In this document: positions 10,094-54,603 of the stretch, piece by piece | How positions within the stretch are numbered: position 1 is the stretch's first letter | How the letters are laid out: every line of letters starts with the position of its first letter | NCBI GenBank assembly: GCA_963931575.1 | Contig: OZ007029.1 | Span: forward strand, 189,694-253,693 | Reading direction: 5' to 3' | DNA: 64,000 nucleotides | From: Candidatus Gastranaerophilales bacterium | GTDB lineage: Bacteria; Cyanobacteriota; Vampirovibrionia; Gastranaerophilales; Gastranaerophilaceae | Notes under the pieces: model-generated | Databases searched by the model: none | What the model was told of the DNA's origin: nothing | What the model saw: only the letters and a program-made list of their open reading frames with translations | Made by a program: the position numbers and the translations under genes

Positions 10094-10177
10094 ACATACA
10101 GATTAACTCTGAAGTCGGAAATGTGTTCCTTTTTTCCTTCTTTTGTATCATTAGGACATAATTTTATTCAATATACG

Positions 10178-12435: not shown

Positions 12436-12615
12436 TTAGCCGTACAAGTTAGATTGTGAGGGCGAAATAGACTATAACATTGATTTTAAAATAGAAAATT
12501 TAAGTCAATTCTTGGACAGTAATCGGACAATGATGACCAAGAAAAGACCCTTTTGTAACATGTAAAACGATTACTTCCGACCGCCAAAGTTCAAACACAA
12601 AGCCAACTTTGCCGA

Positions 12616-12725
12616 ATAATCTTTTTATGCGTTCAGATAAAATGTCCCGTTAAATTACATAAAATGTCCCGTTAAATTACAATAATCTTTTTATGCGTGC
12701 AGATAAAATGTCCCGTTAAATTACA
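12616..12725 (+). repeat. Tandem repeat block: 3 x 23 bp (ataaaatgtcccgttaaattaca) and 2 x 21 bp (aataatctttttatgcgtKcag)
   Basis: 23-mers lie at 12637-12659, 12659-12681 and 12703-12725. 21-mers lie at 12616-12636 and about 12682-12702. The last 23-mer ends in ACA, 45 bp from the tRNA 3' end. Confidence 0.9.
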
Positions 12726-12770: not shown

Positions 12771-12860
12771 CGGAGACGGAGAGATTCGAACTCTCGGTGC
12801 AGGTAGCCCCACACAACACCTTAGCAGGGTGCCGCCTTAAGCCAACTCGGCCACGTCTCC
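12771..12860 (-). tRNA. tRNA-Ser (anticodon GCU), class II with a long variable arm; no encoded CCA
   Basis: Reverse complement is GGAGACGTGGCCGAGTTGGCTTAAGGCGGCACCCTGCTAAGGTGTTGTGTGGGGCTACCTGCACCGAGAGTTCGAATCTCTCCGTCTCCG. It folds by hand: 7-bp acceptor stem, anticodon loop CTGCTAA, T-arm GAGAG-TTCGAAT-CTCTC. Confidence 0.9.
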
Positions 12861-19398: not shown

Positions 19399-20745
19399 TT
19401 ATCTCAGGTATCTTACATAGAGATATATTGAAGATAACAGTAATGAGATAAACGTTACGAGTGCACCGTATTTCATAAATCTCATAAACGAAATCGGATA
19501 ACCTTTTGTTGTAGAGGTTTCAGACACGATAACGTTTGCTGCCGCGCCGATAATCGTAAGGTTTCCGCCGAGGCACGCTCCGAGTGACAATGCCCACCAC
19601 AGTGGCGAATGACCGGTTCCGCTGTATATTAAAGCGTTCGCGTTTTCAGGATTGATTAATTCTGAAATCAATGGCGCCATTGTGGCTGTGTACGGAATGT
19701 TGTCGATTACACCGGACAAAATTCCCGAACCCCAGAGAATTAACATTGTTGCGAGGTTGAGGCTTCCGTTCGTAACTTCTATAAGTTTGTTCGCAAGGAA
19801 GTTTATCCCGCCGTTTGCTTCAAATCCGCCGATTATGATGAATAAACCTACAAAAAAGAAGATTGTAAGCCATTCAACATCAGCATAAATTTCTTTTGGT
19901 TTCTCAAATAACAGCAGAAACGCAGCTCCAGCAACCGCAAATACATACGCAGGAATTCCAGTTAAATCATGCGTTACAAAACCGAGGATTACGAGGAATA
20001 ACGTAACCATTGAACGTATCATTAAGCCTTTATCCGTAATGGTTTTTGAATTATCCATATTTGCGATGTGCGCCATTTTTTCAGGCGTTGCTTTTAGCTG
20101 CTTTCTGAACATAAAGGTAAGAGCTGCAATAGATGCAATAAAAATTACTGCAATGATAGGCGTAAGCTCGTTTATGAAGTCCATAAAGCTTAAACCTGCT
20201 CTTGCCCCGATAATGATGTTAGGCGGATCGCCGATTAACGTTGCGGTTCCGCCGATATTTGACGCCAGAACCTCCGAGATAAGGAACGGAACCGGATCTG
20301 TATCAAATTCTTTTGCTATTACAAACGTTATCGGCATCATAAGCACAACTGTCGTAACGTTGTCTAAAAATGCCGAAGCAACGGCCGTAAAAGCTGCAAG
20401 GGTGAATAAAACCCATTTCGGATGACCTTTCGTCAGTTTTAACAGCTGAATTGCCATCCATTTGAACACGCCGCTTCTGCTTGCAATGTGAACTAAAATT
20501 ATCATGCCTATAAGCAGGAAGATAACTTCAAATTCAACATAATCAAAAACCCCTTTTATATATTGCCCCGCACTGCTGTCTAAGTGTCCGTGGAAAGGCA
20601 ATAACCCGAGGAGTAAAGTCAAGGCTGCACCTACGAGTGCAACTACGGATTTCTGGATTTTTTCTGTCGCGATAAATACATACGCAATCACCAGAATTAA
20701 TCCGGAAATAACCATCCCGTGACTTGAAATGAATTCTTGTAACAT
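19399..20745 (-). CDS. ArsB/NhaD (SLC13-like) family permease
   Basis: Polytopic membrane protein. FLDNVTTVVLMMPIT and GGTATLIGDPPNIIIG motifs. ATG 20745 has a GGAG SD; the track's longer ORF runs through the neighbouring promoter. Confidence 0.75.
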   Translation of the reverse strand: MLQEFISSHGMVISGLILVIAYVFIATEKIQKSVVALVGAALTLLLGLLPFHGHLDSSAGQYIKGVFDYVEFEVIFLLIGMIILVHIASRSGVFKWMAIQLLKLTKGHPKWVLFTLAAFTAVASAFLDNVTTVVLMMPITFVIAKEFDTDPVPFLISEVLASNIGGTATLIGDPPNIIIGARAGLSFMDFINELTPIIAVIFIASIAALTFMFRKQLKATPEKMAHIANMDNSKTITDKGLMIRSMVTLFLVILGFVTHDLTGIPAYVFAVAGAAFLLLFEKPKEIYADVEWLTIFFFVGLFIIIGGFEANGGINFLANKLIEVTNGSLNLATMLILWGSGILSGVIDNIPYTATMAPLISELINPENANALIYSGTGHSPLWWALSLGACLGGNLTIIGAAANVIVSETSTTKGYPISFMRFMKYGALVTFISLLLSSIYLYVRYLR

Positions 20746-20794
20746 AATATATCTCCATTTTATAATTCCGTTTTTTAATATATCACAAACACCC

Positions 20795-20823
20795 TTGACT
20801 AATTCTAAAACATGGTACATAAT
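20795..20823 (+). promoter_or_regulatory. Consensus-like sigma70 promoter of pilin paralogue 1
   Basis: TTGACT-17 bp-CATAAT. The block ...AACATGGTACATAATG is conserved in all five paralogue loci. Confidence 0.7.
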
Positions 20824-20827
20824 GAAG

Positions 20828-20933
20828 AAGGCAATAAGGCAATAAGAGAATAAGGCAATAAGTCGTAGTGGCCAAATGGAAGAAAAAAGAATAGTCCTAT
20901 TGCCATAATGCCCTATTAACTTATTGCCTTATT
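20828..20933 (+). repeat. Long AT-rich inverted-repeat leader built from GGCAATAAG / CTTATTGCC units (copy 1)
   Basis: Left arm is aaggcaataaggcaataagagaataaggcaataag. Right arm is ctattgccataatgccctattaacttattgccttatt. Confidence 0.85.
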
Positions 20934-21106
20934 CCAGTAGTTTGGGCTTTCCAGCCCAACGGAACAAAAAGAAAGGATCGGCGGTCGGCGCGAGCGAGCC
21001 GAGAGTGGAGTGCGTGACGCACGTAACTCGTTTTCGGCGAGTCGAGCAAGAAAAGCCGGTACCATAATTAGACAATGGCGGAACGCCAGAAAGGATAGAA
21101 GAACTT

Positions 21107-22390
21107 ATGAAAAACCGAAGTGTAACAAATTATGCAGGGGGGGGGGGGAGCCGCTCAACCGGTAAATCCTGCACCTTAGGCATCAATGTCATTCAGAACA
21201 GCGAACGAAGCGAGCGTGATTCAGGATCTGACAAGTGTAGCGAACTACCGGTGTCGTTGGACAGATCCCGAAATAAATTCGGAATGACACCGCCGGTCAA
21301 GGCGGCTTCCTGTTTGGGTTGGTCGTTAAAAGGTCATGTTCAACCCTTGTGGATGGCACTCAGTGCCTTTACCATGGCAGCCAGGCTGAGCCGCTCGACT
21401 GAGTCGGTCGCTGAGCGACTTCCACAATTGAATCCGAGCAAGAATTTAGCATTCACAATGGCAGAAATCTTATTATCCCTCACGATAATCGGAGTTGTGG
21501 CGGCGATAACGCTTCCAAGCCTTACCGGAAACATTAATGAGCGCACATGGAACACGCAGCGAAAAGCCCTCTATGCCAGAATGAGTCAGGCGATTGCGCT
21601 TATGCCAGCATTAAATGGCTATGGTACACTGACCGAAGGCGACAGTTCGACTTCAGCAGAGGATACCGCCGCTGAAACCTTTGTCACAGCAGGTTTATCA
21701 AAAGTTCTTAAAATAAATAACATCTGTGACAGCGAGCACCTTGAAGATTGCGGAATTGTTTCACAGATTACAAATCTGCAGGCCAGTAAGGTCAATGTTC
21801 CAACTACTCTTGTCGGATTGAATCCTATGTTTAACAGTACTTTTATTGGCGGGCCGACTGGCAGCGGAAGCTTTACTTATTCCCAACTTGACACTAAGGC
21901 TGCTGCGTTTGAAACCGCTAATGGTGAAAGTATAATTGTCTACTATAATCCGGCCTGCCAATCTGATTTGGCGGAAACTGAATGGAATTACAGGCAGGCT
22001 AAAATGTGTGCGAACTTTATTTATGACCTGAATGGAAGTAAAGGACCTAATACTTTTGGTAAAGATATAGGGGTTATAACCGTATTGTATCCTTCGGATT
22101 CTTCTGTCGTTGCTCCGATACCGGCGTCAGTCAGGAGCGCCGGTTCATCATCGCAGAGAGATGCCGGTAAATTATGCCTGTCACAGGATTCAGAAGGTCG
22201 TGTTCCTAATAGGGATGAACTTGCTGCTGTATTTTATAATAGAGTTATGTTTGGGCTTCCGGGCAGCGATTACTTTTGGACCAGTTCTGTCATAGATTCT
22301 TCTAATGGCTGGGGACAAAGCTTTTATACCGGTCGTGCTGCAATATTGCCGCGAACAGGCGGATATAATGTCTGGTGCGTTAAACGTTAA
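21107..22390 (+). CDS. pilin-like adhesin paralogue 1: long hairpin-module leader, prepilin N-terminus and DUF1566-like C-terminus; in frame with its SD-ATG
   Basis: AFTMAEILLSLTIIGVVAAITLPSLTGNINERTWNTQRKALYAR; DLNGSKGPNT; C-terminal RVPNRDELAAVF...YFWTSS...VWCVKR. Confidence 0.75.
   Translation: MKNRSVTNYAGGGGSRSTGKSCTLGINVIQNSERSERDSGSDKCSELPVSLDRSRNKFGMTPPVKAASCLGWSLKGHVQPLWMALSAFTMAARLSRSTESVAERLPQLNPSKNLAFTMAEILLSLTIIGVVAAITLPSLTGNINERTWNTQRKALYARMSQAIALMPALNGYGTLTEGDSSTSAEDTAAETFVTAGLSKVLKINNICDSEHLEDCGIVSQITNLQASKVNVPTTLVGLNPMFNSTFIGGPTGSGSFTYSQLDTKAAAFETANGESIIVYYNPACQSDLAETEWNYRQAKMCANFIYDLNGSKGPNTFGKDIGVITVLYPSDSSVVAPIPASVRSAGSSSQRDAGKLCLSQDSEGRVPNRDELAAVFYNRVMFGLPGSDYFWTSSVIDSSNGWGQSFYTGRAAILPRTGGYNVWCVKR
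21137..21148 (+). repeat. Poly-G tract, G12, 30 nt after SD-ATG 21107 (in frame)
   Basis: Counted directly; encodes GGGG in the ORF track protein MKNRSVTNYAGGGGSRS. Confidence 0.9.
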
Positions 22391-22396
22391 TCGCCG

Positions 22397-23140
22397 TTAC
22401 ATCGGAACTGAGCGCAGCACCATGTAATACTTGTAATCACCCCAGTATAGAATTATTACTATAAAATTATCATCTAAGTCCTCCGCTTCCAGATATGTCT
22501 TTGGCATTTCCGGACGCTGCGAGGACTTAAATTTTCCTACAAATTTTAACAAACGCAGGTGCTGGCGTTGCGACCAGGTGGTTTTTTCTTCCGGCAGGTG
22601 GTCTTTATAAAAGTCCATAGGTACAATCTTTTTATCATAAATCGGCACAATGTATTTCACCTTTCCGGCTTCTTTGAAAAGCATATACCAGTTGCCGGCA
22701 TGTTCGCGCGGGGTGAGTAAGTAGTATCCCGGCTGAATTGTTATGGTTTTGAAGTATAGCGGTGCGGTCAATCGAAAAAGAGAATATGGCGACCACGCAG
22801 CGTTTTGGGTGTCAACGTATTCATCCGGATCAAGGTCGTGAACATATCTGAAATCCGGAACGTCAAGGCTCCGGTATATTTCAGGAATGTCAGAATCTTC
22901 AATATCTTTGTATTCACTATCTTGTGCGGTGTTGTCCTGTGGAATTTCGGCCGGCTCTGCGGAACTTTCTGTGGCTGTAGTATCTTCCGGTAATGCTTCC
23001 TCCGGCTGTGCAGGTGAAGTCGCCGGTTGTTCGTCCTGATTCGCCGGTACTGTTTGCGGCGGTTCGCCTACCCGTTCATCACATAAACCGGCTGTACCCA
23101 ATATTATTCCCGTTAACACTAACAAAAATATTCGCTTCAT
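22397..23140 (-). CDS. secreted hypothetical protein with a Pro/Glu/Thr-rich N-terminal region
   Basis: Signal peptide MKRIFLLVLTGIILGTAGLC. No domain recognised. Confidence 0.45.
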   Translation of the reverse strand: MKRIFLLVLTGIILGTAGLCDERVGEPPQTVPANQDEQPATSPAQPEEALPEDTTATESSAEPAEIPQDNTAQDSEYKDIEDSDIPEIYRSLDVPDFRYVHDLDPDEYVDTQNAAWSPYSLFRLTAPLYFKTITIQPGYYLLTPREHAGNWYMLFKEAGKVKYIVPIYDKKIVPMDFYKDHLPEEKTTWSQRQHLRLLKFVGKFKSSQRPEMPKTYLEAEDLDDNFIVIILYWGDYKYYMVLRSVPM

Positions 23141-23170: not shown

Positions 23171-23755
23171 TCAAGCGTTAAGCTCTTTAAACGCTGCATC
23201 AAGCGCTTTCGGGCAAATTCCGATAATATTTTCAAGACTTCCGCTGTAGGATTTTACGTACCCCTGAGGCAGCTCCTGAATACCGTAAGCCCCGGCTTTA
23301 TCCAGCGGTTTAAAATTATCTACGTAATAGTCAATCATTTCATCGGTAAGATAATTAAAAACTACGTGTGACGTGGTCGATTTTATTACACTTTTCCCGC
23401 TTTTGGTATTAATTAGGGCAATACTTGTTACTACCTGATGTTCGCGGCCGGAAAGCTGTTTTAACATCCTTTTGGCATCCTGTGAGTCCTTTGGCTTCTC
23501 AAGAATTTTTCCGTCCAGTACGACAACGGTATCGGCACCTATAATGGTACAATCTCCTTCTACAAGCGGAACAACAGCCTTCGCCTTATTATATGCCAGG
23601 TTCTCCACGTAACCATAAGAAAAAGCCGTCGTCGTATGTACTTCCTCATACGGGGACGGCATAATTTCAAATATATATTTGTCTTTTAGTATTTCTGCCC
23701 TTCTCGGTGAAGATGAGGCAAGAATATTTTTTCCCATTATTTGCTCCTTTTTCAC
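23171..23755 (-). CDS. maf: Maf-family nucleoside triphosphate pyrophosphatase
   Basis: LASSSPRRAEIL, GADTVVVLDGKILEKP, KAGAYGIQ. Confidence 0.85.
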   Translation of the reverse strand: MKKEQIMGKNILASSSPRRAEILKDKYIFEIMPSPYEEVHTTTAFSYGYVENLAYNKAKAVVPLVEGDCTIIGADTVVVLDGKILEKPKDSQDAKRMLKQLSGREHQVVTSIALINTKSGKSVIKSTTSHVVFNYLTDEMIDYYVDNFKPLDKAGAYGIQELPQGYVKSYSGSLENIIGICPKALDAAFKELNA

Positions 23756-23831
23756 AATTATAGCAAAAAAGAAACATTAAAAGTGGGTTGCATCAAAATA
23801 TAACGGTTTGGCGATTCGCGCCTTATTCGCT

Positions 23832-24068
23832 CTAGTATCTTGATGTTTTAGTATATCTTGCTGCTTTTGCATTGATTGCATAGCAGGCAATGTTTAAACG
23901 TTGTTTAATAGCAATCATGTTACGGTACATTTCGGCTTGATCTTTCATTGCTTCAAGCATTTTTTCAGGTTCTACCAATGATTCCAAATTATCATGATTG
24001 TCTACTTTCTCATCTGCGTATTTTTTTACTAACAACTGATCAATGTAGTCTTCTGCGCCTATTGCCAT
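23832..24068 (-). CDS. hypothetical small protein
   Basis: 78-aa ORF with a GGAGG SD (rc of cctccg at 24071-24079). Confidence 0.4.
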   Translation of the reverse strand: MAIGAEDYIDQLLVKKYADEKVDNHDNLESLVEPEKMLEAMKDQAEMYRNMIAIKQRLNIACYAINAKAARYTKTSRY

Positions 24069-24276
24069 ATTAAAGCCTCCGAGAGTTTAGTGTGTGAATT
24101 CCTTATAAAATAAATATCCTATTTTATTCCTATGTATATATAAAGTATTTCTCTTTTCGAGAATTGCCTTTTTGGGAAAATGAAATTTACAAAACTTAAT
24201 ATATACGCAGTATGGCGCAATTATATCTTGAAAAAATACTTTATATCATTAAGGATTTAATTAAGGAGTAACGACC

Positions 24277-24480
24277 ATGGGGAAAAAATTAATCAGAAAA
24301 ATCAGGGACAATTGTGCAATTTTGTGCGTCAAGAGTATTGAAGGCTTGAAAAATGGATTATTAATGCGTAACTTTATGCGCGGCGCGATTGATGATTCAA
24401 TGTGGGTAAGCGGCAGCGGTGTAATTTTTACAAAGCACCGCGGAAATACCGAGCCGATTGACCTTGGTTTAGGAATTTAA
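24277..24480 (+). CDS. hypothetical small protein
   Basis: 67-aa ORF with an AAGGAG SD. A gggggc-gtaa-gccccc hairpin follows at 24497-24512. Confidence 0.4.
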   Translation: MGKKLIRKIRDNCAILCVKSIEGLKNGLLMRNFMRGAIDDSMWVSGSGVIFTKHRGNTEPIDLGLGI

Positions 24481-24553
24481 TTAATAAGATTTTATGGGGG
24501 GCGTAAGCCCCCTTGATGTTGAATGGTATCTGGAGTTGGAACTGCACGTGGTC

Positions 24554-24582
24554 TTGACTAAATAGAAAACATGGTACATAAT
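24554..24582 (+). promoter_or_regulatory. Promoter of pilin paralogue 2
   Basis: TTGACT-17 bp-CATAAT. Confidence 0.7.
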
Positions 24583-24673
24583 GAAAGAGTGCCGCTGAGC
24601 GGCATCCATAATAAGACAATGGCAAAATGCCAAGAAAGGATGGAAAAATGGAAAAACGTAAGAGTGTAACAAT

Positions 24674-25909
24674 TTGCACGGGGGGGGGGGGGGGCCGGCT
24701 GAGCCGACCGCTGAGCGGTACCCACGACTGAACCCGAGCGACTGGACAAAGAAATCCCCATATTGTCATCCTGAACTGCGCGAGCGAGCAGAGGCACAAA
24801 GCGAAAACCACGCTTTTCGCGGTGCCGTTTTGCGCGAGTCGAGCAAGACAGATTCAGGATCTGACCAGTGTTGCGAACTACCGGTGTCGCTGGCCAGATC
24901 CCGAAATAAATTCGGGATGACATTACAGAAAATAACCATGTCTTGTGGTTTTACAATGGCAGAAATCCTGTTATCCCTCACGATAATCGGCGTTGTGGCG
25001 GCGATAACGCTACCAAGTTTAACCGGAAATATTAACGAGCGGACGTGGAACACTCAGCGAAAAGCGCTTTATGCACGACTTTCACAGGCAATATCTCTAA
25101 TGCCTGCTCTGAACGGTTACGGAACATTAAAAGAGGAAAGTTCTGCCGGTGCGAGTGATGCAGTGGATACTGTTGCAGAAACTTTTTTAACGGCAGGACT
25201 TTCAAAAGTTCTTAAAATAAATAACATCTGCGATAATGAACATCTACCTGATTGCGGTCTGTCGTCCAGAATTACAAATCTTGCGGCAAGTCAGATTGAT
25301 TTACCGTTGAAGTTGTCTGATTTGAATCCGCTTAATATATATGTATCTCAATCGTGGAGTGCAACGACATCGCATGGTGCCGGCTCTAGATATTATTCTA
25401 TGATGGATGCAAAAGCCGCTGCATTTGAAACCGCTAATGGTGAAAGTGTTGTCGCTTATTACAATTCGTCTTGCGCGCCTTCAATGTCCGAGAGTGCAGG
25501 TATTTATGCCGCAGCTAAGATTTGTGTAAGTTTTCTTTATGACCTGAACGGGAACAAAGGCCCGAATACTGTTGGTAAAGATCTCGGTTTGATCACGGTA
25601 TATTATCCTTCCGATAGTCTGGTTGTTGCTCCGGTGCCTTATTCACGCGATGCAGGAGTGTTAGTTTCAGATTCCGGTGTTAATAGCATTTGTAAATCTC
25701 TGGATGAAGATTACCGGCTGCCTACTATCGAAGAATTGGGGGCGCTTTCCTTTAACTCTGAACTTATAGGAAATTTAGATGCTGAGCGTTATGCCTCATC
25801 CACTTTCCTATCTTCTTCCAAAAAATGGTATTTACATGCCGACTCAGGAATATTGAATGTAGATGACAGATTTTCTACGACTTCGGACATCAGATGTGTT
25901 AAAAGATAA
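24674..25909 (+). CDS. pilin-like adhesin paralogue 2; frame is open from the poly-G tract; alternative conventional start at ATG 24917
   Basis: SCGFTMAEILLSLTIIGVVAAITLPSL...; DLNGNKGPNT; C-terminal YRLPTIEELGALS...DIRCVKR. Confidence 0.7.
   Translation: MHGGGGGPAEPTAERYPRLNPSDWTKKSPYCHPELRERAEAQSENHAFRGAVLRESSKTDSGSDQCCELPVSLARSRNKFGMTLQKITMSCGFTMAEILLSLTIIGVVAAITLPSLTGNINERTWNTQRKALYARLSQAISLMPALNGYGTLKEESSAGASDAVDTVAETFLTAGLSKVLKINNICDNEHLPDCGLSSRITNLAASQIDLPLKLSDLNPLNIYVSQSWSATTSHGAGSRYYSMMDAKAAAFETANGESVVAYYNSSCAPSMSESAGIYAAAKICVSFLYDLNGNKGPNTVGKDLGLITVYYPSDSLVVAPVPYSRDAGVLVSDSGVNSICKSLDEDYRLPTIEELGALSFNSELIGNLDAERYASSTFLSSSKKWYLHADSGILNVDDRFSTTSDIRCVKR
24680..24694 (+). repeat. Poly-G tract, G15, after SD-ATG 24648 (out of frame; +1 or -2 G needed)
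   Basis: Counted directly. The ATG 24648 frame stops at about 24723 (MEKRKSVTICTGGGGGRLSRPLSGTHD*). Confidence 0.9.
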
Positions 25910-25931
25910 GAAACAGCCGAAAGGCTGTTTC
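25910..25931 (+). terminator. Terminator of paralogue 2
   Basis: gaaacagcc-gaaa-ggctgtttc followed by TTT. Confidence 0.7.
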
Positions 25932-26171
25932 TTTAATTAAGTTATGTTAATTTTATATATAATAAAGCTTGCACAAGTGTGAAAAAAGTTTTATACTACA
26001 ATTGTAATATGTGTAAAAGGGTTTATTGAATTGTGCCAAGTGCCATTCAAATAGAGTATTGTTTTGTAATGCTGATTTTTATAAAATAGTTTTAAGTAAT
26101 GTTAAATTACCGGAGAAATTAAGCAATAAATTTGCTTGAGTGTTTTTAGTGAAAAGTGTGGTAGGTGAATC

Positions 26172-28145
26172 TTGACTAAAGAAGCAGTTGAAACGCAACA
26201 AAAACTGAATAAGGCGAAGAAGCGTGTTGAGAAACAGGCTACCAACCCTATTTCCGGTTTATCCAAAGCGCCGGAATTGAAGGTTACAAAGAGTGCCTCG
26301 AACGTATTATCAATAGAGTCGCAGGCGCCGAAAATTCAGGAGCCGGAAAACAAACAGCAGCGTAACGCGGAAATGGCACCCGGCTTAATTGCTACTATAA
26401 ACACTTTTAACGCGAATAAATCACACAACCGTCTTTATAGCGGCTATGCAAGCAATCCTATTGCCGGAAAGGCTGTCGTAAACGGAAACGAACTGGCTAA
26501 TGCGGTTTGTTCGGCACTGAAAAACAGAACGGATATTTCAGAACTTTTTGTCGCTATTCATAACACCTGCTGCGAAAAACTTAACAGTATTTATACAGGT
26601 TTCGGGCTTTATCACGAAACCTCCAGATGCATAGATTTTAAACTTTTTTCTAAAATCGGCGGAACATATTCCTCAAAAATCTTCCAGTCTGACAGCGAAA
26701 ACCCTATTATGGAATGTTTTACCACACAAAAACCAGTCATTCTGAAAGATAATAAGTTCTTAAATATTCCGTACCTGAAAAATTCAGAAACGATAATTCT
26801 GCCGCTGATGTCGATTGATAAATGCCTTGGCATAATGCTTTTAGGCAGAAATGACCTTGTGAACAATCTGGAGCTTCTGGGCTTTATTGCAAACTATTGC
26901 GGTCTGTTTATTCATAATTTTGAACTTATTGAACGAACCGCAAAATACGCAAATACAGACACTTTGACCGGCATGTACACCCACCGAGGATTTCAGGAAG
27001 TGCTCTCTGCCGAACTTGAAAAAGCTAAAACAAATAAAACACCGCTTTCGATTGTTATGTTTGACGTTAATAACATTTCAAAAATTAACAGAGAACTCGG
27101 GCATGCCAAAGGTGATGAGGTTATTAAGGTTCTGGCGGAAAAGATTAAACAGAGTGCAAGAAATTCCGATATTGCAGGACGCTACGGCGGCGATGAGATT
27201 GCTTTGATTTTACCTAACACAAACACCGCTGATGCAAAATATCTTGCAGAATACATAACTTACTGCCTGTCTTGCTGCTTTATTGATGATGTAGGGCCGG
27301 TTAAGGTTGCGGTTGGTATTTCTACATATCCTGATTGTTCGGAAAATCAGGAAAAATTGCTGATACTTGCAGAACAGGCAATGATTATTTCGCAGGCAAA
27401 GGGCTACAAAGAGGGTATGTCTGCGATTATAAGCTCTTCGGACTTCAATTTCTGGGATGATGAGGCGCTCAGTTCATTCGCGCAGGTTATCTCCAAGCGC
27501 CACTCGCAATTGGGAATTAATTATGAAGAAGAACTTGTACAGAAATTCAATACTTCAGAAGTCAAATCGCACAATCACCTTGTAGAAATGGTTACGTCAT
27601 TAACCGCTGCAATTGATGCGAAGGATCCATATACAAAAGGTCACTCAACTTCTGTGTCAAGGTATTCAGAGGCGCTTGCACGTGCAATAAATCTTCCTGA
27701 AGAAGAGGTTCAACGAATTGCACTCGGGGCACAGCTTCACGATGTCGGCAAAATCGGTATCCCTGAAAATGTCTTGAGAAAAACTGATAAACTTTCGGAT
27801 GAAGAATGGGAAATTATGAAACAGCACCCGACGATTGGGGCAGAAAAGGTTCTTGAACCAAATCCTGGTTTAAGAGATTTGATTCCGATGGTAAAATATC
27901 ACCATGAAAAAATCGACGGAACAGGCTATCCTATGGGCTTGAAGGGGGATGAAATTCCGCTTGAAGCAAGGATAATCTCCGTTGCGGATGCGTATCACGC
28001 ACTTGTAAGTGACAGACCGTACCGTAAGGGCATGCCGCTGGAAAAGGCGTGTGCGATTTTGAAAGACGGCGCGGGCAAACACTGGGATGCGAATCTCGTA
28101 AGACATTTTATCGCGATTGCACCGTCACTTTCTACAAGTGTGTAA
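26172..28145 (+). CDS. multidomain c-di-GMP enzyme: sensor (GAF-like) + GGDEF + HD-GYP
   Basis: RYGGDEIAL (GGDEF site). LHDVGKIGIP and HHEKIDGTGYP (HD-GYP). TTG start as in the track. Confidence 0.8.
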   Translation: MTKEAVETQQKLNKAKKRVEKQATNPISGLSKAPELKVTKSASNVLSIESQAPKIQEPENKQQRNAEMAPGLIATINTFNANKSHNRLYSGYASNPIAGKAVVNGNELANAVCSALKNRTDISELFVAIHNTCCEKLNSIYTGFGLYHETSRCIDFKLFSKIGGTYSSKIFQSDSENPIMECFTTQKPVILKDNKFLNIPYLKNSETIILPLMSIDKCLGIMLLGRNDLVNNLELLGFIANYCGLFIHNFELIERTAKYANTDTLTGMYTHRGFQEVLSAELEKAKTNKTPLSIVMFDVNNISKINRELGHAKGDEVIKVLAEKIKQSARNSDIAGRYGGDEIALILPNTNTADAKYLAEYITYCLSCCFIDDVGPVKVAVGISTYPDCSENQEKLLILAEQAMIISQAKGYKEGMSAIISSSDFNFWDDEALSSFAQVISKRHSQLGINYEEELVQKFNTSEVKSHNHLVEMVTSLTAAIDAKDPYTKGHSTSVSRYSEALARAINLPEEEVQRIALGAQLHDVGKIGIPENVLRKTDKLSDEEWEIMKQHPTIGAEKVLEPNPGLRDLIPMVKYHHEKIDGTGYPMGLKGDEIPLEARIISVADAYHALVSDRPYRKGMPLEKACAILKDGAGKHWDANLVRHFIAIAPSLSTSV

Positions 28146-28953: not shown

Positions 28954-31900
28954 TTACCCCTCTTTTAACACTCTGTCGAGGCAGGCGTCTTTTGAATAAT
29001 GCCATTCGCGGTAGGTTATTCTGCGCACTGTGAATCCGCACCGTTCCAGTATTGCCTGTTTTTTCATGTTGCTGATACGGGATTTCTGGTTGTCCTCAAC
29101 GCCGTCGACTTCTATAATCAATTTGTTATCTACAACCAGATCCGCGCTAAGACTTGCGATTTCAACACCGGTCTGAACATTATGACCCAGTGCGCGGATT
29201 TCGTTGGCAATTTCTTTTTCAAGCGGATTTTTGTAGATGTTTTCGTCAAAATCCTCGGAGTTTGAAAGTTTCAACCTATCTCGGTACTGCTGCATAAAGG
29301 AAATATAGTTTCTGAAATGACCTTCCGGCAGGCCGGATGGGTCGCGTGAAACAAAATTGATAACTTTATTTCTTCCGCGCGTAATTGCAACGTTAAAGAG
29401 GTTTGCTTTTTGCAGGAAGGTTATGCTTTGCGTGAAGCTGTTGTCCGCAAATGCCCATGAAATCAGCATTATATCGCGTTCATCTCCCTGAAAGGTGTGG
29501 GCGGTACCGATTTCAATTTCGTGCTTTTTAATCATGTGATCGGAAAGAACTTTGGAAACAGCGACTTTCAATGCTTCCACCTGCGCGCGGAACGGGGAAA
29601 TAAGCCCGATTGTGACAGGTTTATCAGGATTATTGCGCTCATCTTCGACGACTATGTCGTAAAGGCGTTTTACGACCGCTTCGACCTCCGGAAGGTTTCG
29701 GGTTGCGTCAAAGTCAACTTTTCCGTCAGGCACCTGAACGAGTTCCAGAACGGGTGTTTTTTCAAAATCTTTTCTCATAATACGGATTTTGCCGTTATAA
29801 AATTCACGGTTTGAAAACTCAATAATCGGCGGCAGCGAGCGGAAGTGCTCGTCCAGCATAACGGAATTCATTGAGTAGTAGTCTGCAAGATCAAACATGG
29901 AATTTGTTCTGAAACGCCAGATAAGCTGGTATTTTTCAGGGATTCCGTACTGGCTGAGGAACGATTGTTCTTTGGCTTTTTCGAGGAATGACAGGTGCGG
30001 AAGCTGTTTGTCGTCGCCTACGATTACTGCACGTTTTGCGCGGAAAAGTATCGGGAAGCAGCTTGCTATATCGCATTGCGATGCTTCGTCAATTATTGCA
30101 ACATCAAACATTCCCGGCTTTAGCGGGAGTGAATCCGAAACCGCATAAGTTGTTACACACCAGCAAGGGAAAGCGTCAAGCAGCGGACGGAAATCTTCCT
30201 CTGCCAGAATTGTGTCCTGAATACGTTTTCTGTTCGCGGTTAGTGCTTTTGCGTGGATTTTCAGGCGGCGTTTTTTGTTTTCGTCGAATAAAAGCGATTT
30301 TAACGACTCACGGCGGGTGTTTTTCAAAATGTTTACCGCAAGCGTTTTTTGTTCGGCTTTTTTCTTTTTGATATGCGCTGTTAGCTGGTGAAGGTTTCCT
30401 GTTTTTTGAATTTCGTTTTCGATTTTTCTAAGGTCATAAAGCAAAGATTCAAAATCCAGTTCTTCGTTCAAACGCGATAAATTTTCAAGAGTTACGTCAA
30501 AATGCTTTAGTTTAAGTGTCTTTTTGAGCTTCAATTCACTGAAAAAGTTGAGAATTTTTGCGATAATCCCCATTTTTTCAAGATTTTTTTCTAACGTTTT
30601 TGAGATAAGTTTGAGGGTTTCAATGTCGAGTTTTTTGAGTGAATTTTTCACGTATTGCATTTGCCCGACAACGCTTTCTTCCTCTTCGACAATGAGGTTC
30701 TGGTCGTGCCATTCGCGCTCTAACTTGATTATTTTTTCGCACTTGCCCTCAATTTCTTTGATGTAATCGAGGTGGTCTTTCATATCCTCGACCGTTGCAA
30801 AAATGCTGTCCTCTAAGTCCTCATCAAGAATTGAGTCGTCTGCAAGAAGGTTATTTAATTCTTCGCTGAGCATTCTCTGGTAATTCAGACGTCCGGCGCG
30901 GAGTGCCATATATTTTGCCCCGAGAGCGTTAAGCCTATCGGCAACGACATCAACGGCTTTATCCATACGGGAAGCCACAAGGACAGTTTTGCCGTTTGCA
31001 ACAAGGTGCGAAACAAGGTTAACAATTGTTTGTGATTTACCTGTTCCCGGAGGCCCCTGAACCGCTACGAATTTACTGTTATCAATGTTTTTTATAACCA
31101 TTTCCTGAGAATCGCTTAACGATAAAGGCGTTACAGGGTAGAAGTCTGTAATATTTCTGATATCTTGAAGCGGAACGGATTTTTCTTTTGACTGCGCATA
31201 TTCTTCATTGATAATGCTCAATGCTGTTTCGCGGTAGATGCCGCTCGGCTTTTCCGCAATCTGTGTTAATTCGTGCAGAACACCAGCTGTGACTGATGGA
31301 CGCTTTGTTAAAATTATCGCACTTTGATAGGTTACACAGACTTTTTCAAGCTTTACCGCGGCTTTTTGGGTGTTTTCCTCTTCTTCAATAACATCTTCAA
31401 CGTTTTCGGCCGTAATTTTTTCTTCCGTATAAAACTCTTTTGCAGCTTTGGTGATATTATCTTCTTCAACGTAATCCGCGGTGTTTGATGTTATTTCAAT
31501 GTCAGGAATGAGCGATTTCAGGGTCGTGAGGAAGATATCGAGTTTTTCCTGCGTAATCGGAAGATCAGGCACAACGTTTAAAATTCCTTCTAAAAGGATA
31601 TCTACTTCATCTTCATCGTCATTTTTGCGCATTAAAGCGGCAAGTGCGCCGGTGTTGAGCGAAAGCACTTCATCCATCGGAAAACAATTTATATTAACGC
31701 CGTTGCGCTCCAAACGGCACGGCATATACAAAAGCGGGGTGAGAAATTCGTTTGCCTTTTTTGATTTAGAACTTTTCCCTACTAAAAAGAGATAACCGTA
31801 GATAAGGTATTTGTCGCGTGCACCGTGTTCTGATTGAAGCATAAGTTCGGTAAGCTTCGGGTCCGCACCGTCTAGCGGTATGTATTCCTGAAAATTAGAA

Positions 31901-32076
31901 AATAACTGCTCCTCGCCTTTCAGGAAAATCCATTTGTTATCTTTATCGCCCTTAAGGTTGCGGAAAGTCGAACTTTTAACTTCTTCCCGAACGCAGTCGT
32001 GAAGATACTGGCTTAACTTTTTTATAAAACTGTTGTTGAACGCGGAATTTATTGCTCTGGTAGCTTCTTGTAACAT
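28954..32076 (-). CDS. SF1B (Upf1/DNA2-like) helicase fused to a C-terminal DUF559/Vsr-like PD-(D/E)xK endonuclease domain
   Basis: GPPGTGKSQT; IIDEASQ; VGDDKQLPH; HFRSLPPIIEFSN; TFQGDERD; NVAITRGR. C-terminus has DLVVDNKLIIEVDGVEDNQ...RRITYREW. ATG 32076 follows GGGGAGAG. Confidence 0.8.
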   Translation of the reverse strand: MLQEATRAINSAFNNSFIKKLSQYLHDCVREEVKSSTFRNLKGDKDNKWIFLKGEEQLFSNFQEYIPLDGADPKLTELMLQSEHGARDKYLIYGYLFLVGKSSKSKKANEFLTPLLYMPCRLERNGVNINCFPMDEVLSLNTGALAALMRKNDDEDEVDILLEGILNVVPDLPITQEKLDIFLTTLKSLIPDIEITSNTADYVEEDNITKAAKEFYTEEKITAENVEDVIEEEENTQKAAVKLEKVCVTYQSAIILTKRPSVTAGVLHELTQIAEKPSGIYRETALSIINEEYAQSKEKSVPLQDIRNITDFYPVTPLSLSDSQEMVIKNIDNSKFVAVQGPPGTGKSQTIVNLVSHLVANGKTVLVASRMDKAVDVVADRLNALGAKYMALRAGRLNYQRMLSEELNNLLADDSILDEDLEDSIFATVEDMKDHLDYIKEIEGKCEKIIKLEREWHDQNLIVEEEESVVGQMQYVKNSLKKLDIETLKLISKTLEKNLEKMGIIAKILNFFSELKLKKTLKLKHFDVTLENLSRLNEELDFESLLYDLRKIENEIQKTGNLHQLTAHIKKKKAEQKTLAVNILKNTRRESLKSLLFDENKKRRLKIHAKALTANRKRIQDTILAEEDFRPLLDAFPCWCVTTYAVSDSLPLKPGMFDVAIIDEASQCDIASCFPILFRAKRAVIVGDDKQLPHLSFLEKAKEQSFLSQYGIPEKYQLIWRFRTNSMFDLADYYSMNSVMLDEHFRSLPPIIEFSNREFYNGKIRIMRKDFEKTPVLELVQVPDGKVDFDATRNLPEVEAVVKRLYDIVVEDERNNPDKPVTIGLISPFRAQVEALKVAVSKVLSDHMIKKHEIEIGTAHTFQGDERDIMLISWAFADNSFTQSITFLQKANLFNVAITRGRNKVINFVSRDPSGLPEGHFRNYISFMQQYRDRLKLSNSEDFDENIYKNPLEKEIANEIRALGHNVQTGVEIASLSADLVVDNKLIIEVDGVEDNQKSRISNMKKQAILERCGFTVRRITYREWHYSKDACLDRVLKEG

Positions 32077-32155
32077 TATCTTTTTCTCTCCCCTTGTGCT
32101 TTTAAGTATAGCAAAAATAGGGCACTGTTGCAATAATTTGTGTTATAATTTCAAT

Positions 32156-43889: not shown

Positions 43890-44768
43890 TTATTCCCCGA
43901 GGTTAAGTTGTGAGAACTGAACGATTTTGTTTTTACCGCGTTTTTTAGCGTTGTAAAGCGCGTGTTCTGCATAACGAATAACGGTATTTGCGTCCTCTTC
44001 AACGTTTTCCATGCAAGGATATGTTGAAATCCCGCCGGAAATCGTTATCGGGTGGCGTTCTTCTTCCCCTGCCGGAATAAATTCCATACGTTCAATGTCG
44101 CGTCTGAAACGTTCTGCAAACAGGAAGGCCTGTTCTTCCGAAGTATTTGGAAGAATTACCAGAAATTCTTCGTCCCCGTAGCGGGTAAGAATATCTTCTT
44201 TTCTGATTAATTGTTTTAATTTTTCAGCAACGGATTTAAGAAGGACATCGCCCCAGCTGTAGCCGTAAATGTCGTTTACGACTTTGAAGAAGTCAAGGTC
44301 AAACAGCAGGCAGGAAAGTTTCAAACCGTAGCGTTTTGAACGTGAAATTTCCTGATCAAGACGTTCCTGCATATATTTTCTGTTATGCAGTCCCGTTAAT
44401 TCGTCTGTCGTTGAAACCTGACGGATTTTTGTCATAAGTTCGCGGATTCTGAGCATTGCGCGGACTCTTATAATAAGTTCGCTTGTATCAAGCGGAGTCT
44501 TTATAAAGTCGTAAGCAAAAGCTCTTACCACCTGTGCTTTTTTAAACTCTTCTCCGATAAATAAAATCGGGGTTTTAAACTTAACGAGAGCGAGAGTATC
44601 TGGCAAGTTTGTAACATTTTCAGTTATAATAAGGCTCGGGTTCAGTGTTTCATACTCTTTTAGAGTATAGTCCTCTTCAACCCGTATATTTGCGTCCTCA
44701 AATTCTTTTTCAAGAAGATCTGCGATATTAGATTCTTTTCTTGGTGCATAAATTACGATATTTTTCAT
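43890..44768 (-). CDS. REC-like + GGDEF diguanylate cyclase
   Basis: DELTGLHNRKY, RYGDEEFLVIL. ATG 44768 (MKNIVIYAPRK) is preferred; the track's longer ORF runs into the duplicated promoter block. Confidence 0.75.
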   Translation of the reverse strand: MKNIVIYAPRKESNIADLLEKEFEDANIRVEEDYTLKEYETLNPSLIITENVTNLPDTLALVKFKTPILFIGEEFKKAQVVRAFAYDFIKTPLDTSELIIRVRAMLRIRELMTKIRQVSTTDELTGLHNRKYMQERLDQEISRSKRYGLKLSCLLFDLDFFKVVNDIYGYSWGDVLLKSVAEKLKQLIRKEDILTRYGDEEFLVILPNTSEEQAFLFAERFRRDIERMEFIPAGEEERHPITISGGISTYPCMENVEEDANTVIRYAEHALYNAKKRGKNKIVQFSQLNLGE

Positions 44769-44899
44769 ACAAAACCTCTCTTTTAACTTCAATTCTATCA
44801 TATTTTTTGAATGAAAGCAATCATATATTGACATGACTTGAAACATGGTACATAACCGCCGGTCAAGGCGGCTTCCTAATTAGACCCTTGCTATCGGTC

Positions 44900-44933: not shown

Positions 44934-45096
44934 TGGCAATAAGTAAATAAGGCAATAGGGCAAAAAGTCGTTATGGCCAAATTGACGATAAAAGTTAATA
45001 AGTTAATAGGTTAAAGAGTTAATAAGGAATATGACCGAATGAAAGAAAAAAAGAATATTCCTATTGCCCTAATGCCTTAATGACCTATTGCCTTAT
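44934..45096 (+). repeat. AT-rich GGCAATAAG inverted-repeat leader (copy 3, expanded loop with GTTAATAAG units)
   Basis: Left arm gtggcaataagtaaataaggcaatagggc; right arm cctattgccctaatgccttaatgacctattgccttat. Confidence 0.8.
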
Positions 45097-45145
45097 GCAA
45101 AAAAAAGAAAGGATGGAAAAATGAAAAAGCGAATTGTAAGTATGT

Positions 45146-46312
45146 ATGCAGGGGGGGGGGGGGAGCGCTGAGCCGGCCGCTGAGCGGCATCCACAAAGCG
45201 ATCCGTGCAAGAAATTAAATGTCATCCTGAACCGCGAGCGAAGCGAGCGTGATTCAGGATCTGTCCCACGTTACGAACAGGTATCCAACATTGGCCAGAC
45301 CCTGAAACGAGTTCAGGGTGACAAATTTTTGTCATTGCGTGTCGGTTTTACCATGGCAGAAATCCTATTATCCCTCACTATAATAGGCGTTGTTGCGGCG
45401 ATAACGCTTCCGTCACTTACCGGCAACATCAATGAGCGGACATGGAACACACAACGCAAAGCCCTTTATGCGCGTTTTAGTCAGGCAATTGCTTTAATGC
45501 CTGCGCTTAATGGTTATGGTACATTAAGAGAAAATACTGACAGTGCGGGTTCAACTTCCATTGAGGACACTGCGGCAGAAACTTTTATTACTGCCGGACT
45601 TTCAAAAGTCCTTAAGATAAATAATATTTGTGACAATGAGCATTTAGAAGATTGCGGCATTGCGTCAAAATTTACTGATATGAAAGGCAATACTGTATCA
45701 ATTCCGCTCAAGATGTCAGAATTAAATTCAAAAATGACGTCTGTTTCTTATTGGTCGAGTAGTCTTAATACGAATATTTATTATAGTACTATTGATACAA
45801 AGGCTGCGGCTTTTGAAACGCAAAACGGAGAAAGTATCCTATTATTTTATCAGCCGGTTTGTGTTTCAAATATGGGTGAAACGGGTAGATATAATGTTCA
45901 GCCTAAAGTATGTGCAAATATGATATATGACCTTAACGGAACAAAAGGGCCGAATACTTTTGGAAAAGATATAGGAATCTTGACGGTATTATATCCTTCT
46001 GATAGCGTTGTTGTTGCACCGGTGCCATTTAATACCAAATTTGACAGCGTTCCGGCTGAGGAGGCAAGTAATGTTTGTACAACCAGAACGGGTGAAGATT
46101 ATAGAATTCCATCAAAGGATGAAGTAATTTCCCTATTTGTTAATAAGGATATTATAGGCTTTGAAGAGGGTGACAGCCATTTATTTTCGTCTTCTAAGCT
46201 TGTAACATCTTCCGGTTATATTACCAACTGGGTTTTATATTTAGGAAGCGGTGAATTTAGAATTCCGGTCGCCGGCGATCCGTGGGGTGTTTTATGCGTC
46301 AAACGAAATTAA
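45146..46312 (+). CDS. pilin-like adhesin paralogue 3 (frame open from the poly-G tract)
   Basis: RVGFTMAEILLSLTIIGVVAAITLPSL; DLNGTKGPNT; C-terminal YRIPSKDEVISLF...GVLCVKRN. Confidence 0.7.
   Translation: MQGGGGSAEPAAERHPQSDPCKKLNVILNRERSERDSGSVPRYEQVSNIGQTLKRVQGDKFLSLRVGFTMAEILLSLTIIGVVAAITLPSLTGNINERTWNTQRKALYARFSQAIALMPALNGYGTLRENTDSAGSTSIEDTAAETFITAGLSKVLKINNICDNEHLEDCGIASKFTDMKGNTVSIPLKMSELNSKMTSVSYWSSSLNTNIYYSTIDTKAAAFETQNGESILLFYQPVCVSNMGETGRYNVQPKVCANMIYDLNGTKGPNTFGKDIGILTVLYPSDSVVVAPVPFNTKFDSVPAEEASNVCTTRTGEDYRIPSKDEVISLFVNKDIIGFEEGDSHLFSSSKLVTSSGYITNWVLYLGSGEFRIPVAGDPWGVLCVKRN
45151..45163 (+). repeat. Poly-G tract, G13, after SD-ATG 45121 (out of frame; -1 or +2 G needed)
   Basis: Counted directly. 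The ATG 45121 frame gives MKKRIVSMYAGGGGGALSRPLSGIHKAIRARN*. Confidence 0.9.
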
Positions 46313-50208: not shown

Positions 50209-50282
50209 AAGGCAATAAGAGAACAAGGCAATGAGTCGTTATAACCAAATGGAAGAAAAAAAGAATAGTCCTATTGCCTTAT
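50209..50282 (+). repeat. AT-rich GGCAATAAG inverted-repeat leader (copy 4, shortest)
   Basis: aaggcaataagagaacaaggcaatgag ... ctattgccttat. Confidence 0.8.
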
Positions 50283-50366
50283 GCTAAAGTAGGTTGGGCT
50301 TGCCAGCCCAACACAATAAAAAGAAAGGATAGAAGAAATGAAAAGACGAGGTGTAAAGATTATGAC

Positions 50367-50380
50367 GGGGGGGGGGGGGG
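50367..50380 (+). repeat. Poly-G tract, G14, after SD-ATG 50338 (out of frame; -1 or +2 G needed)
   Basis: Counted directly. The ATG 50338 frame gives MKRRGVKIMTGGGGEFLTRKIRY*. Confidence 0.9.
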
Positions 50381-54416: not shown

Positions 54417-54428
54417 CCCCCCCCCCCC
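54417..54428 (-). repeat. Poly-G tract, G12 (C12 on the plus strand), after SD-ATG 54477 (out of frame; -1 or +2 G needed)
   Basis: Counted directly. There are 61 nt from the ATG to the first base after the tract. Confidence 0.9.
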
Positions 54429-54498
54429 TCGGTGGAATGCCCGTACTACAAGGGTTTTCAGCTTCTAAATTTTTCATCGTTTCTATCCTTTCTTTATC

Positions 54499-54599
54499 AT
54501 AAGGCAATAGGTCAATATGGCATTAGGGCAATAGGACTTTTTATTTTTCATTTGGTCATAACGACTCATTGCCTTATTCACTTATTGCCTTATTGCCTC
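54499..54599 (-). repeat. AT-rich GGCAATAAG inverted-repeat leader (copy 5)
   Basis: Minus strand reads gaggcaataaggcaataagtgaataaggcaatgag ... ctattgccctaatgccatattgacctattgccttat. Confidence 0.8.
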
Positions 54600-54603
54600 T
54601 TTC

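Follow-up and report, generated by a model that had tools for sequence, protein, structure and literature searches.

The pilC genes of Neisseria carry a poly-G tract in the region that encodes the signal peptide, and poly-G contingency loci are also known from Campylobacter and Haemophilus. A locus with a related layout was analyzed in a stretch of 64,000 nucleotides (nt) from a Candidatus Gastranaerophilales bacterium (contig OZ007029.1, positions 189,694 to 253,693 of the forward strand; hereafter the window), in which a putative pilin gene occurs in five copies. The region from 24554 to 25909 on the plus strand forms a self-contained gene unit, copy 2 of the five. With an estimated probability of about 0.78, based on sequence comparisons, copy 2 is a stand-alone contingency gene in a phase-OFF state, whose long leader would be joined by translational read-through to a modular prepilin. 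As in Neisseria pilC, its G tract lies shortly after the start codon, in the signal or leader region of a pilus-associated surface protein, where tract length would toggle translation. Unlike Neisseria pilC, the genes found here specify a class III (prepilin) leader, occur in dozens per genome, and combine long tracts (mode G12-G13) with a repeat-derived leader of up to approximately 550 nt between the tract and the mature protein. Long leaders of known pilins measure, to our knowledge, approximately 15-30 amino acids (aa), and those of the in-frame homologues 25-132 aa or more.

Modular type IV pilins such as PilB and PilC of Streptococcus sanguinis, and long-leader pilins (PMC10191384), are similar to copy 2 in joining a class III signal and a pilin helix to a grafted adhesive module. 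They also share with it the variable length of the leader and its terminal Gly or Ala. A point of difference is the grafted module, which in copy 2 is an Lcl_C/C-type-lectin-like domain. The same C-terminal fold is found, at 24% sequence identity, in Lcl of Legionella pneumophila (8q4e), a collagen-like repeat protein rather than a pilin. The leader itself resembles a further system. [quoted passage not shown] They share with the element in the leader of copy 2 a short palindromic structure with inverted termini, a dispersed distribution, the lack of a transposase gene, and translation into a conserved peptide (here ...RSRNKFGMT). The element studied here differs from them in belonging to another sequence family of approximately 60-70 nt, in its tendency to nest, and in its presence in many uncultured lineages. 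The single components of the locus are therefore known; new are the combination of a poly-G switch, a modular lectin pilin, and in-frame repeats, as well as the scale of the system and the length of the leader. A literature search on Gastranaerophilales or Melainabacteria pilins, on phase variation, and on long prepilin leaders with homopolymers yielded nothing relevant.

Layout and reading frames of copy 2

Copy 2 begins with a sigma-70-type promoter (TTGACT-17-CATAAT, 24554-24582, plus strand; 10 of 12 consensus matches), and promoters of this type (families D9/D10) are kept upstream of all five window copies and of the orthologues L081 and L082. A Shine-Dalgarno (SD) motif, AAAGGA (24635-24640), is separated by a 7-nt spacer from the true start codon, ATG 24648 (SD to ATG, 24635-24650, plus strand). 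The succession of SD, spacer, and ATG-AAA/GAA recurs in approximately 50 related loci, and the initiation window of ATG 24648 is unstructured (-1.9 kcal/mol). After this ATG, 10 further codons (MEKRKSVTICT) precede a homopolymer of 15 G residues (G15, 24680-24694, plus strand), which begins 32 nt after the ATG, inside the region that encodes the leader peptide, and is the putative phase switch. ATG 24648 and the pilin are in the same frame when the tract is G13 or G16. At the present length, as an earlier note on this DNA had recognized, they are not: the frame of ATG 24648 reads MEKRKSVTICTGGGGGRLSRPLSGTHD and is closed by TGA 24729-24731 (plus strand). That frame comprises 27 codons, or 34 if counted from ATG 24627, so that the early stop reported in the note stands and its length of 25 codons does not. 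The third frame stops at 24700-24702; G14 leads to a stop after 17 codons and G15 to one after 27.

The pilin frame extends without interruption from 24674 to 25909 (411 codons) and contains RSRNKFGMTLQKITMSCG, followed across the cleavage site by FTMAEILLSLTIIGVVAAITLPSL. It comprises a stop-free leader of 255 nt (85 codons; 24695-24949, plus strand), which extends from the tract to the Gly codon at the cleavage site (24947-24949), and a mature modular pilin of 319 aa with its stop codon (24950-25909, plus strand), in which an FTMAE helix is followed by a beta-rich middle part and a C-terminal Lcl_C/C-type-lectin-like domain. The leader region is strongly structured (z = -4.3), with CTGAG-loop hairpins at 24696-24719, and includes a composite palindromic repeat element of 165 nt (55 codons; 24761-24925, plus strand). 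A terminator-like hairpin lies beyond the stop codon (25908-25933).

The window holds five tracts of G12-G15, and a G9 pattern gave 26 overlapping matches in it against 0.12 expected. The tracts of the other copies lie at 21137-21148, 45151-45163, 50367-50380, and 54417-54428 (minus strand).

Reading frames between the tract and the pilin were compared on DNA whose selection did not depend on gene calling. Each of the five window copies had a pilin frame without stops between the tract and FTMAE. Of 61 distinct loci with a tract, 58 had an open pilin frame, and the other two frames were open in 8 and 9, in each case only where the interval between tract and pilin did not exceed 33 nt. When this interval was at least 45 nt, the pilin frame was free of stops in 42 of 45 loci and each of the other frames in none of the 45. 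The 9,423 nt of these long leaders contained 8 stop codons in the pilin frame versus 179 and 169 in the other frames, in which reading ended a median of 14 and 22 nt past the tract. The conservation of an open pilin frame (42/45 versus 0/45) argues that ribosomes read from the tract into the pilin, yielding a fusion, and not that the tract belongs to a separate upstream open reading frame (uORF). A long leader, which the earlier note had named as the other possibility, is thus favored by the comparative frame data.

Homologues with an in-frame tract are consistent with this conclusion. Locus L081 carries a leader of the copy 2 type, including MTLQKITMSCG, with G13 in a continuous ORF of 407 aa, and copy 1, a continuous ORF of 427 aa, is the sole window copy whose pilin is in frame with the SD-preceded ATG. 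Among the best 120 homologues, at least 32 open with MK..GGGG and read on through leaders of 25-132 aa. The residue at -1 is Ala (86) or Gly (22) in each of 108 homologues, and the leaders carry a net positive charge (median +5) and lack hydrophobic segments. The cleavage region of copy 2 reads ...SCG/FTMAEILLSLTIIGVVAAITLPSL (slashes mark the cleavage site), a hydrophilic leader with Gly at -1 and, beyond it, a stretch of approximately 20 hydrophobic residues with Glu at +5, in agreement with the criteria for prepilin leaders in PMC10191384. Class III leaders end in Gly or Ala, stay in the cytoplasm, and are cleaved at the membrane's cytoplasmic face (PMC10191384), a topology that would make additional leader length harmless. 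Family members that have no tract (L020, L024, L027, and L033) carry canonical leaders of 4-6 aa directly behind the same SD (MKKA/F, for example in MKKA/FTMAE, MKNLA/F, and MKNFSA/F), and in L050 a G6 remnant is locked in frame. These five short-leader members are probably constitutive copies. Gene callers begin genes of this family at arbitrary internal codons (MQGGGG..., MRESSK..., MSLRVG...).

According to the proposed mechanism, copy 2 would be transcribed from the promoter at 24554-24582, and translation would begin at ATG 24648 and pass through the G tract within the leader-peptide coding region. With G13 or G16, translation would continue via the stop-free, hairpin-rich leader of approximately 100 codons into the pilin. 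With G15, the ribosome would be in the wrong frame and stop at 24729-24731, which would correspond to the phase-OFF state. The frames themselves were computed; from them we infer the step from frame to protein, the cleavage of the leader, and the switching by tract length. The long, hydrophilic, and net-positive leader would stay in the cytoplasm, and, by extension from class III biology, prepilin peptidase would cut after the Gly or Ala at -1. A cytoplasmic location of the leader would explain why selfish palindromic repeats are tolerated in frame.

In the 5' untranslated region (5' UTR), copies 1, 3, 4, and 5 carry a GGCAATAAG repeat that builds a long AT-rich hairpin (-48 kcal/mol and z = -5.7 in copy 3). 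No such repeat is present between the promoter and the SD of copy 2, where a short hairpin, TGCCGCTGAGCGGCA (24590-24604, plus strand), which is conserved in L081 and L082, takes its place. The AT-rich hairpin is also missing in L081, L082, and many related loci, in line with the suggestion in the earlier note that it is dispensable for the basic layout. A GGCAATAA(G) repeat with an 8-nt period is, together with its inverse, arrayed in the 5' UTRs of copies 1, 3, 4, and 5 (20826-20941, 44935-45105, 50211-50285, and 54495-54600 on the minus strand), and it is these arrays that fold into the long AT-rich hairpin. In copy 1, the region of approximately 650 nt between promoter and pilin (20795-21451) resembles a nested duplication or a recombination between the 5' ends of pilin genes: a first SD-like AAAGAAAGGAT (20969-20978) is severed by inserted modules, a second SD follows at 21088-21096, and an internal pseudo pilin start (SAFTMAARLSRS...) lies ahead of the real AFTMAE.

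Three other interpretations of the upstream region of copy 2 were discarded. Rfam searches of 24500-25000 gave no match at the gathering threshold and one chance-level match (E 0.46), and in the whole window they found the tRNA alone; neither threshold therefore pointed to a known structured RNA family. An invertible promoter was rejected because no long inverted repeats flank the promoter, and the inverted repeats that were found are the arms of the palindromic element itself. A role of the tract as a G-quadruplex was set aside, as slipped-strand switching of the frame accounts for the data.

Tract length, frame state, and leader remodeling

Leader alleles of the copy 2 type were found with G15 (window), G14 (L082), and, in frame, G13 (L081). 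L082 is the syntenic orthologue of copy 2, with flanking Maf and GGDEF-HD genes that are 95-97% identical. Relative to copy 2 (window 23220-27411), its leader is 84 nt shorter and its C-terminal half has been replaced. L081, which comes from another sample, has, when compared with window positions 20738-22656, the flanks and the pilin body of the copy 1 locus, yet a promoter and leader of the copy 2 type. In the metagenome-assembled genome (MAG) CALUQY, the orthologues of copies 2 and 5 (L001 and L058) have entirely different leaders of 432 and 552 nt. These comparisons indicated that leaders and heads are exchanged or remodeled quickly, and cassettes of both kinds appear to travel from locus to locus and from strain to strain.

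Tract lengths ranged from 9 to 15 across 53 loci, with a mode of G12-G13. In approximately 10 loci, the sequence ..tATGCA-Gn before the tract creates an ATG in the +1 frame (MQGGGG...), which is in frame with the pilin at one extra G (for example ATG 45146 of copy 3, window 45142-45148), and gene callers start at this MQGGGG ATG in 11 of the best 120 homologues. It is frequent for assemblies to have Ns exactly at the G/C tract (L005, L016, L049, L051, L054, L063, and L077) or for the contig to end there (L017, L042, L071, and L079), which fits either length heterogeneity or sequencing difficulty.

Several observations weigh against the interpretation of copy 2 as a phase-OFF gene with a long leader. 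Frame states were unevenly distributed over the 53 loci: 38 had one extra G, 13 were in frame, and 2, among them copy 2 with the longest tract of the set, had two extra or one missing. This bias was present in every genome (chi-square p = 4e-9) and would not be expected of a switch that simply flips at random between ON and OFF. It may stem from toggling between two states under selection for OFF, from transcriptional or translational slippage, or from a bias of assembly. Moreover, tract lengths were taken from consensus metagenome assemblies, in which long G runs are error-prone. Loci L013, L019, and L066 contain stops within the leader, and we know of no precedent for cleavage of a leader of approximately 100 aa by prepilin peptidase. 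Finally, ATG 24917, an in-frame codon within the leader of copy 2, has no SD, which is a weak argument for a start further upstream, because, among the window's 31 ORF starts as defined mechanically, no more than 15 have an SD-like motif. Fold energies and comparative data were therefore used for this codon instead.

The leader with its hairpins may be more than passive junk, and two roles are conceivable. The state with one extra G, in which most copies are held, might act jointly with the stable hairpin that often starts directly after the tract as a programmed +1 slippage device, either of the ribosome or of transcription, that would give graded low-level expression of many pilins at once. 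The leader swap of L081 and the replaced C-terminal half of L082 can be read as products of recombination of leaders and lectin heads among the dozens of loci, driven by the palindromic cassettes, in which case the locus would represent a combined phase- and antigenic-variation system. Taken together, these two proposals are considered unlikely.

Slippage of RNA polymerase or of the ribosome on the G run might also rescue out-of-frame alleles, so that these, chiefly those with one extra G, would be partly expressed. The distribution of 38, 13, and 2 loci, the +1-frame ATG just before the tract in approximately 10 loci, and the stable hairpins that start 0-3 nt past many tracts are compatible with such a rescue. 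However, two-state toggling under selection for OFF might also account for the bias. Moreover, transcriptional slippage is best documented on A/T runs. For copy 2, with its rare frame state, one +1 slip would not suffice; rescue would take a shift of +2 or of -1, the latter having the effect of one more G. Expression of the family by slippage rescue is accordingly unlikely.

ATG 24917 and the palindromic repeat element

The composite element in the leader of copy 2 is bounded by outer inverted repeats of 15 nt that are 87% complementary (24761-24775 and 24911-24925). The arms of its first hairpin (24765-24776 and 24851-24863) enclose a nested insert of approximately 72 nt, which is missing from the syntenic orthologue L082, and a second hairpin (24898-24918, plus strand) lies in the 3' half. 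Both hairpins belong to one family, GTCAT-NNN-GAA...TTC-NNN-ATGAC, in which complementary central triplets of six kinds are kept in 223 of 254 units. The stem of hairpin 2 co-varies across relatives (GATCCCGAA/TTCGGGAT, GACCCTGAA/TTCAGGGT, and GATCCTGAA/TTCAGGAT), independently of hairpin 1, in which the covarying pairs are CATCCTGAA/TTCAGGATC, CATGCTGAA/TTCAGCATC, and CATTCCGAA/TTCGGAATC. This covariation indicated that the hairpin exceeds chance. The minimum-free-energy structure from RNAfold, in which the 5' arm of hairpin 1 pairs with the 3' arm of hairpin 2, was not relied on, as covariation supports two local hairpins.

An exact 23-mer of the element, CCCGAAATAAATTCGGGATGACA, was present in more than 120 unrelated metagenome contigs among the matches listed (L083-L202), which have G+C contents of 27-51% and originate from groundwater, sludge, sediment, and soil. 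In these contigs the element measures approximately 60-70 nt, is often nested, and lies mostly in non-coding DNA or just 3' of genes (examples are L134, L124, L102, L172, and L159). Approximately 10 of the insertions are in frame, with PurA, TruB, an M24 peptidase, MiaA, a GHMP kinase, and a second prepilin leader as the recipients, and the element interrupts or flanks the Pfam matches of the proteins that bear it. In the Gastranaerophilales DNA examined (the window and 248 kb of related loci), by contrast, 19 of 19 hairpin units lie within pilin leaders. In this lineage the units are consequently not ordinary intergenic repeats, though they are elsewhere, and a generic repetitive extragenic palindrome scattered over the genome was rejected as an explanation. 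The flanks of the five window copies, read by eye, showed no consistent target-site duplication; no cognate transposase was identified, although no search was aimed at transposases; and a literature search found no paper with the DNA or peptide motifs of the element. Its small size, inverted termini, many dispersed copies, and in-frame insertions suggest that the module formed by hairpin and ATG is most likely a selfish, MITE-like repeat.

Several features that the earlier note ascribed to the downstream ATG of copy 2 were found in the sequence. ATG 24917 (24917-24919, plus strand) opens MTLQKITMSCG/FTMAE in frame with the pilin ORF that ends at 25909. It overlaps a perfect hairpin with an 8-bp stem, ATCCCGAA-ATAAA-TTCGGGAT (24898-24918), which includes the A and the T of the ATG, and no AGGA or GGAG motif lies upstream. 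The same module is also in frame in copy 1 (ATG 21284) and copy 5 (ATG 54161, minus strand). The ATG is, at the same time, part of the element terminus TTCGGGATGACA. Within the module (24897-24922), the other two frames contain TGA and TAA, and the single stop-free frame reads ...RSRNKFGMT, so that translated copies must use this frame, which accounts for the in-frame ATG of copies 1, 2, and 5. The equivalent module of copies 3 and 4 has ...TTCAGGGTGACA as its end, with a GTG that is out of frame. These data suggest that ATG 24917 is most likely an incidental part of the palindromic repeat and not a dedicated start.

Leaky internal initiation, at ATG 24917, at ATG 24938 (MSCG/F), or at nearby TTG or GTG codons, would result in constitutive low expression, with the tract acting as a dimmer. 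Copy 2 does offer two in-frame ATGs, 11 and 4 codons before the cleavage site, approximately half of the ORF starts in the window have no clear SD, and family members with leaders of 4-6 aa are evidently functional. However, the bona fide short-leader members all have a strong AAAGGAT SD. Around ATG 24917, the fold energy is -12.1 kcal/mol and the A and U of the codon are paired, compared with -1.9 kcal/mol around ATG 24648. Internal ATGs are not conserved either: an in-frame ATG between tract and pilin is missing from 39 of the 61 loci, including 21 of 43 with a leader of at least 45 nt. Leaky initiation is therefore an improbable explanation of the locus.

The earlier note had proposed that ribosomes translating a poly-G-gated uORF melt the hairpins and enable termination-coupled initiation at ATG 24917, resulting in a prepilin with an 11-aa leader. 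The in-frame position of this ATG, the plausible leader that it would start, ending in Gly, and its occlusion by a conserved hairpin that would need melting are in keeping with that proposal, which is contradicted by the geometry of the locus. Only the pilin frame reaches the hairpin; the off-frame stops (24729-24731 and 24700-24702) precede ATG 24917 by 186 and 215 nt, so that no uORF ends near it and the arrangement required for termination and reinitiation is lacking. In addition, coupled initiation leaves the conservation of the open frame unexplained, most relatives have no in-frame leader ATG, and the module that bears the ATG is a generic repeat. Coupled initiation was consequently judged very improbable. 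Hardly any weight can be given to copy 2 being a decaying pseudogene with a structured upstream region of junk DNA, for although it has the longest tract of the set and the rarest frame state, its 411-codon pilin-frame ORF is intact across leader and body, its promoter, SD, and start are conserved with those of its orthologues, and one G insertion restores the frame.

The encoded pilin, its family, and its genomic setting

The product of copy 2 matched TIGR02532 with 19.9 bits (cut-off 16.3), and copies 4 and 5 also scored just above this cut-off. Its match to Pfam PF07963 (16.9 bits) was below the cut-off of 21.2, and its C-terminus showed a weak match to Pfam Lcl_C. An AlphaFold2 model built with 52 family members (mean predicted local distance difference test score, pLDDT, 84; predicted template modeling score, pTM, 0.82) contained helices at residues 4-19 and 25-50, followed by beta-rich domains. 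Residues 1-30 were modeled with low confidence, and a Foldseek search against PDB gave no pilin among the best matches. The C-terminal approximately 100 residues matched the C-terminal domain of Legionella Lcl (8q4e; E 3.8e-5, root-mean-square deviation 2.0 A over 100 columns) and also superposed on C-type-lectin-like folds. Copy 2 therefore most likely encodes a modular type IV prepilin-like protein, in which a class III signal peptide is followed by a beta-rich domain and an Lcl/C-type-lectin-like C-terminus.

The family is very large: more than 2,400 of its proteins were recovered, and species-representative genomes contain at least 339 of its loci. Six Candidatus Gastranaerophilales/Melainabacteria MAGs, one of them mislabeled as Fusobacterium sp., account for all of the best 80 loci, and at least 26 of these 80 came from a single MAG. 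The first approximately 60 residues of the mature protein are nearly invariant.

Genes for the type IV pilus machinery were absent from the 64-kb window, in which the pilin copies have Maf, GGDEF/HD-GYP, SecA, IF-2, RF-1, PheS, and YchF genes as neighbors. A Gastranaerophilus genome has been reported to encode pilB, pilC, pilD, and pilT (PMC5877343). Three proteins with GGDEF or GGDEF-HD-GYP domains (cyclic-di-GMP) are encoded at 26172-28145, 43890-44846, and 56973-58880, two of which adjoin pilin copies 2 and 3. A 1059-aa superfamily-1 helicase (AAA_11/AAA_12) with a C-terminal MTES_1575 restriction-endonuclease-like domain is encoded at 28954-32133 on the minus strand and may be a defense or repair protein. 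Elsewhere in the window, a 45-nt unit (AATAATCTTTTTATGCGT.CAGATAAAATGTCCCGTTAAATTACA) is directly repeated at 12615-12725, its copies being 98% identical, 66 nt apart, and provided with an internal 22-nt repeat. These repeats adjoin the sole tRNA gene of the window (12771-12860, minus strand), and a pair of 38-nt repeats is located at 10172 and 12392.

Little is known of the surface biology of Gastranaerophilales, a widespread and uncultured group of gut bacteria related to cyanobacteria. That a genome can hold dozens of lectin-tipped pilin genes, each presumably switched on its own, points to surface variation of a stochastic kind in the gut, as in pathogens such as Neisseria and Campylobacter. 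Leaders of 25-132 aa or more that are built from selfish palindromic repeats suggest that leaders of class III form a neutral appendage in the cytoplasm, able to absorb mobile DNA. The palindromic element, cosmopolitan and present in housekeeping genes of many uncultured bacteria, would constitute a broader analogue of the Rickettsia palindromic elements.

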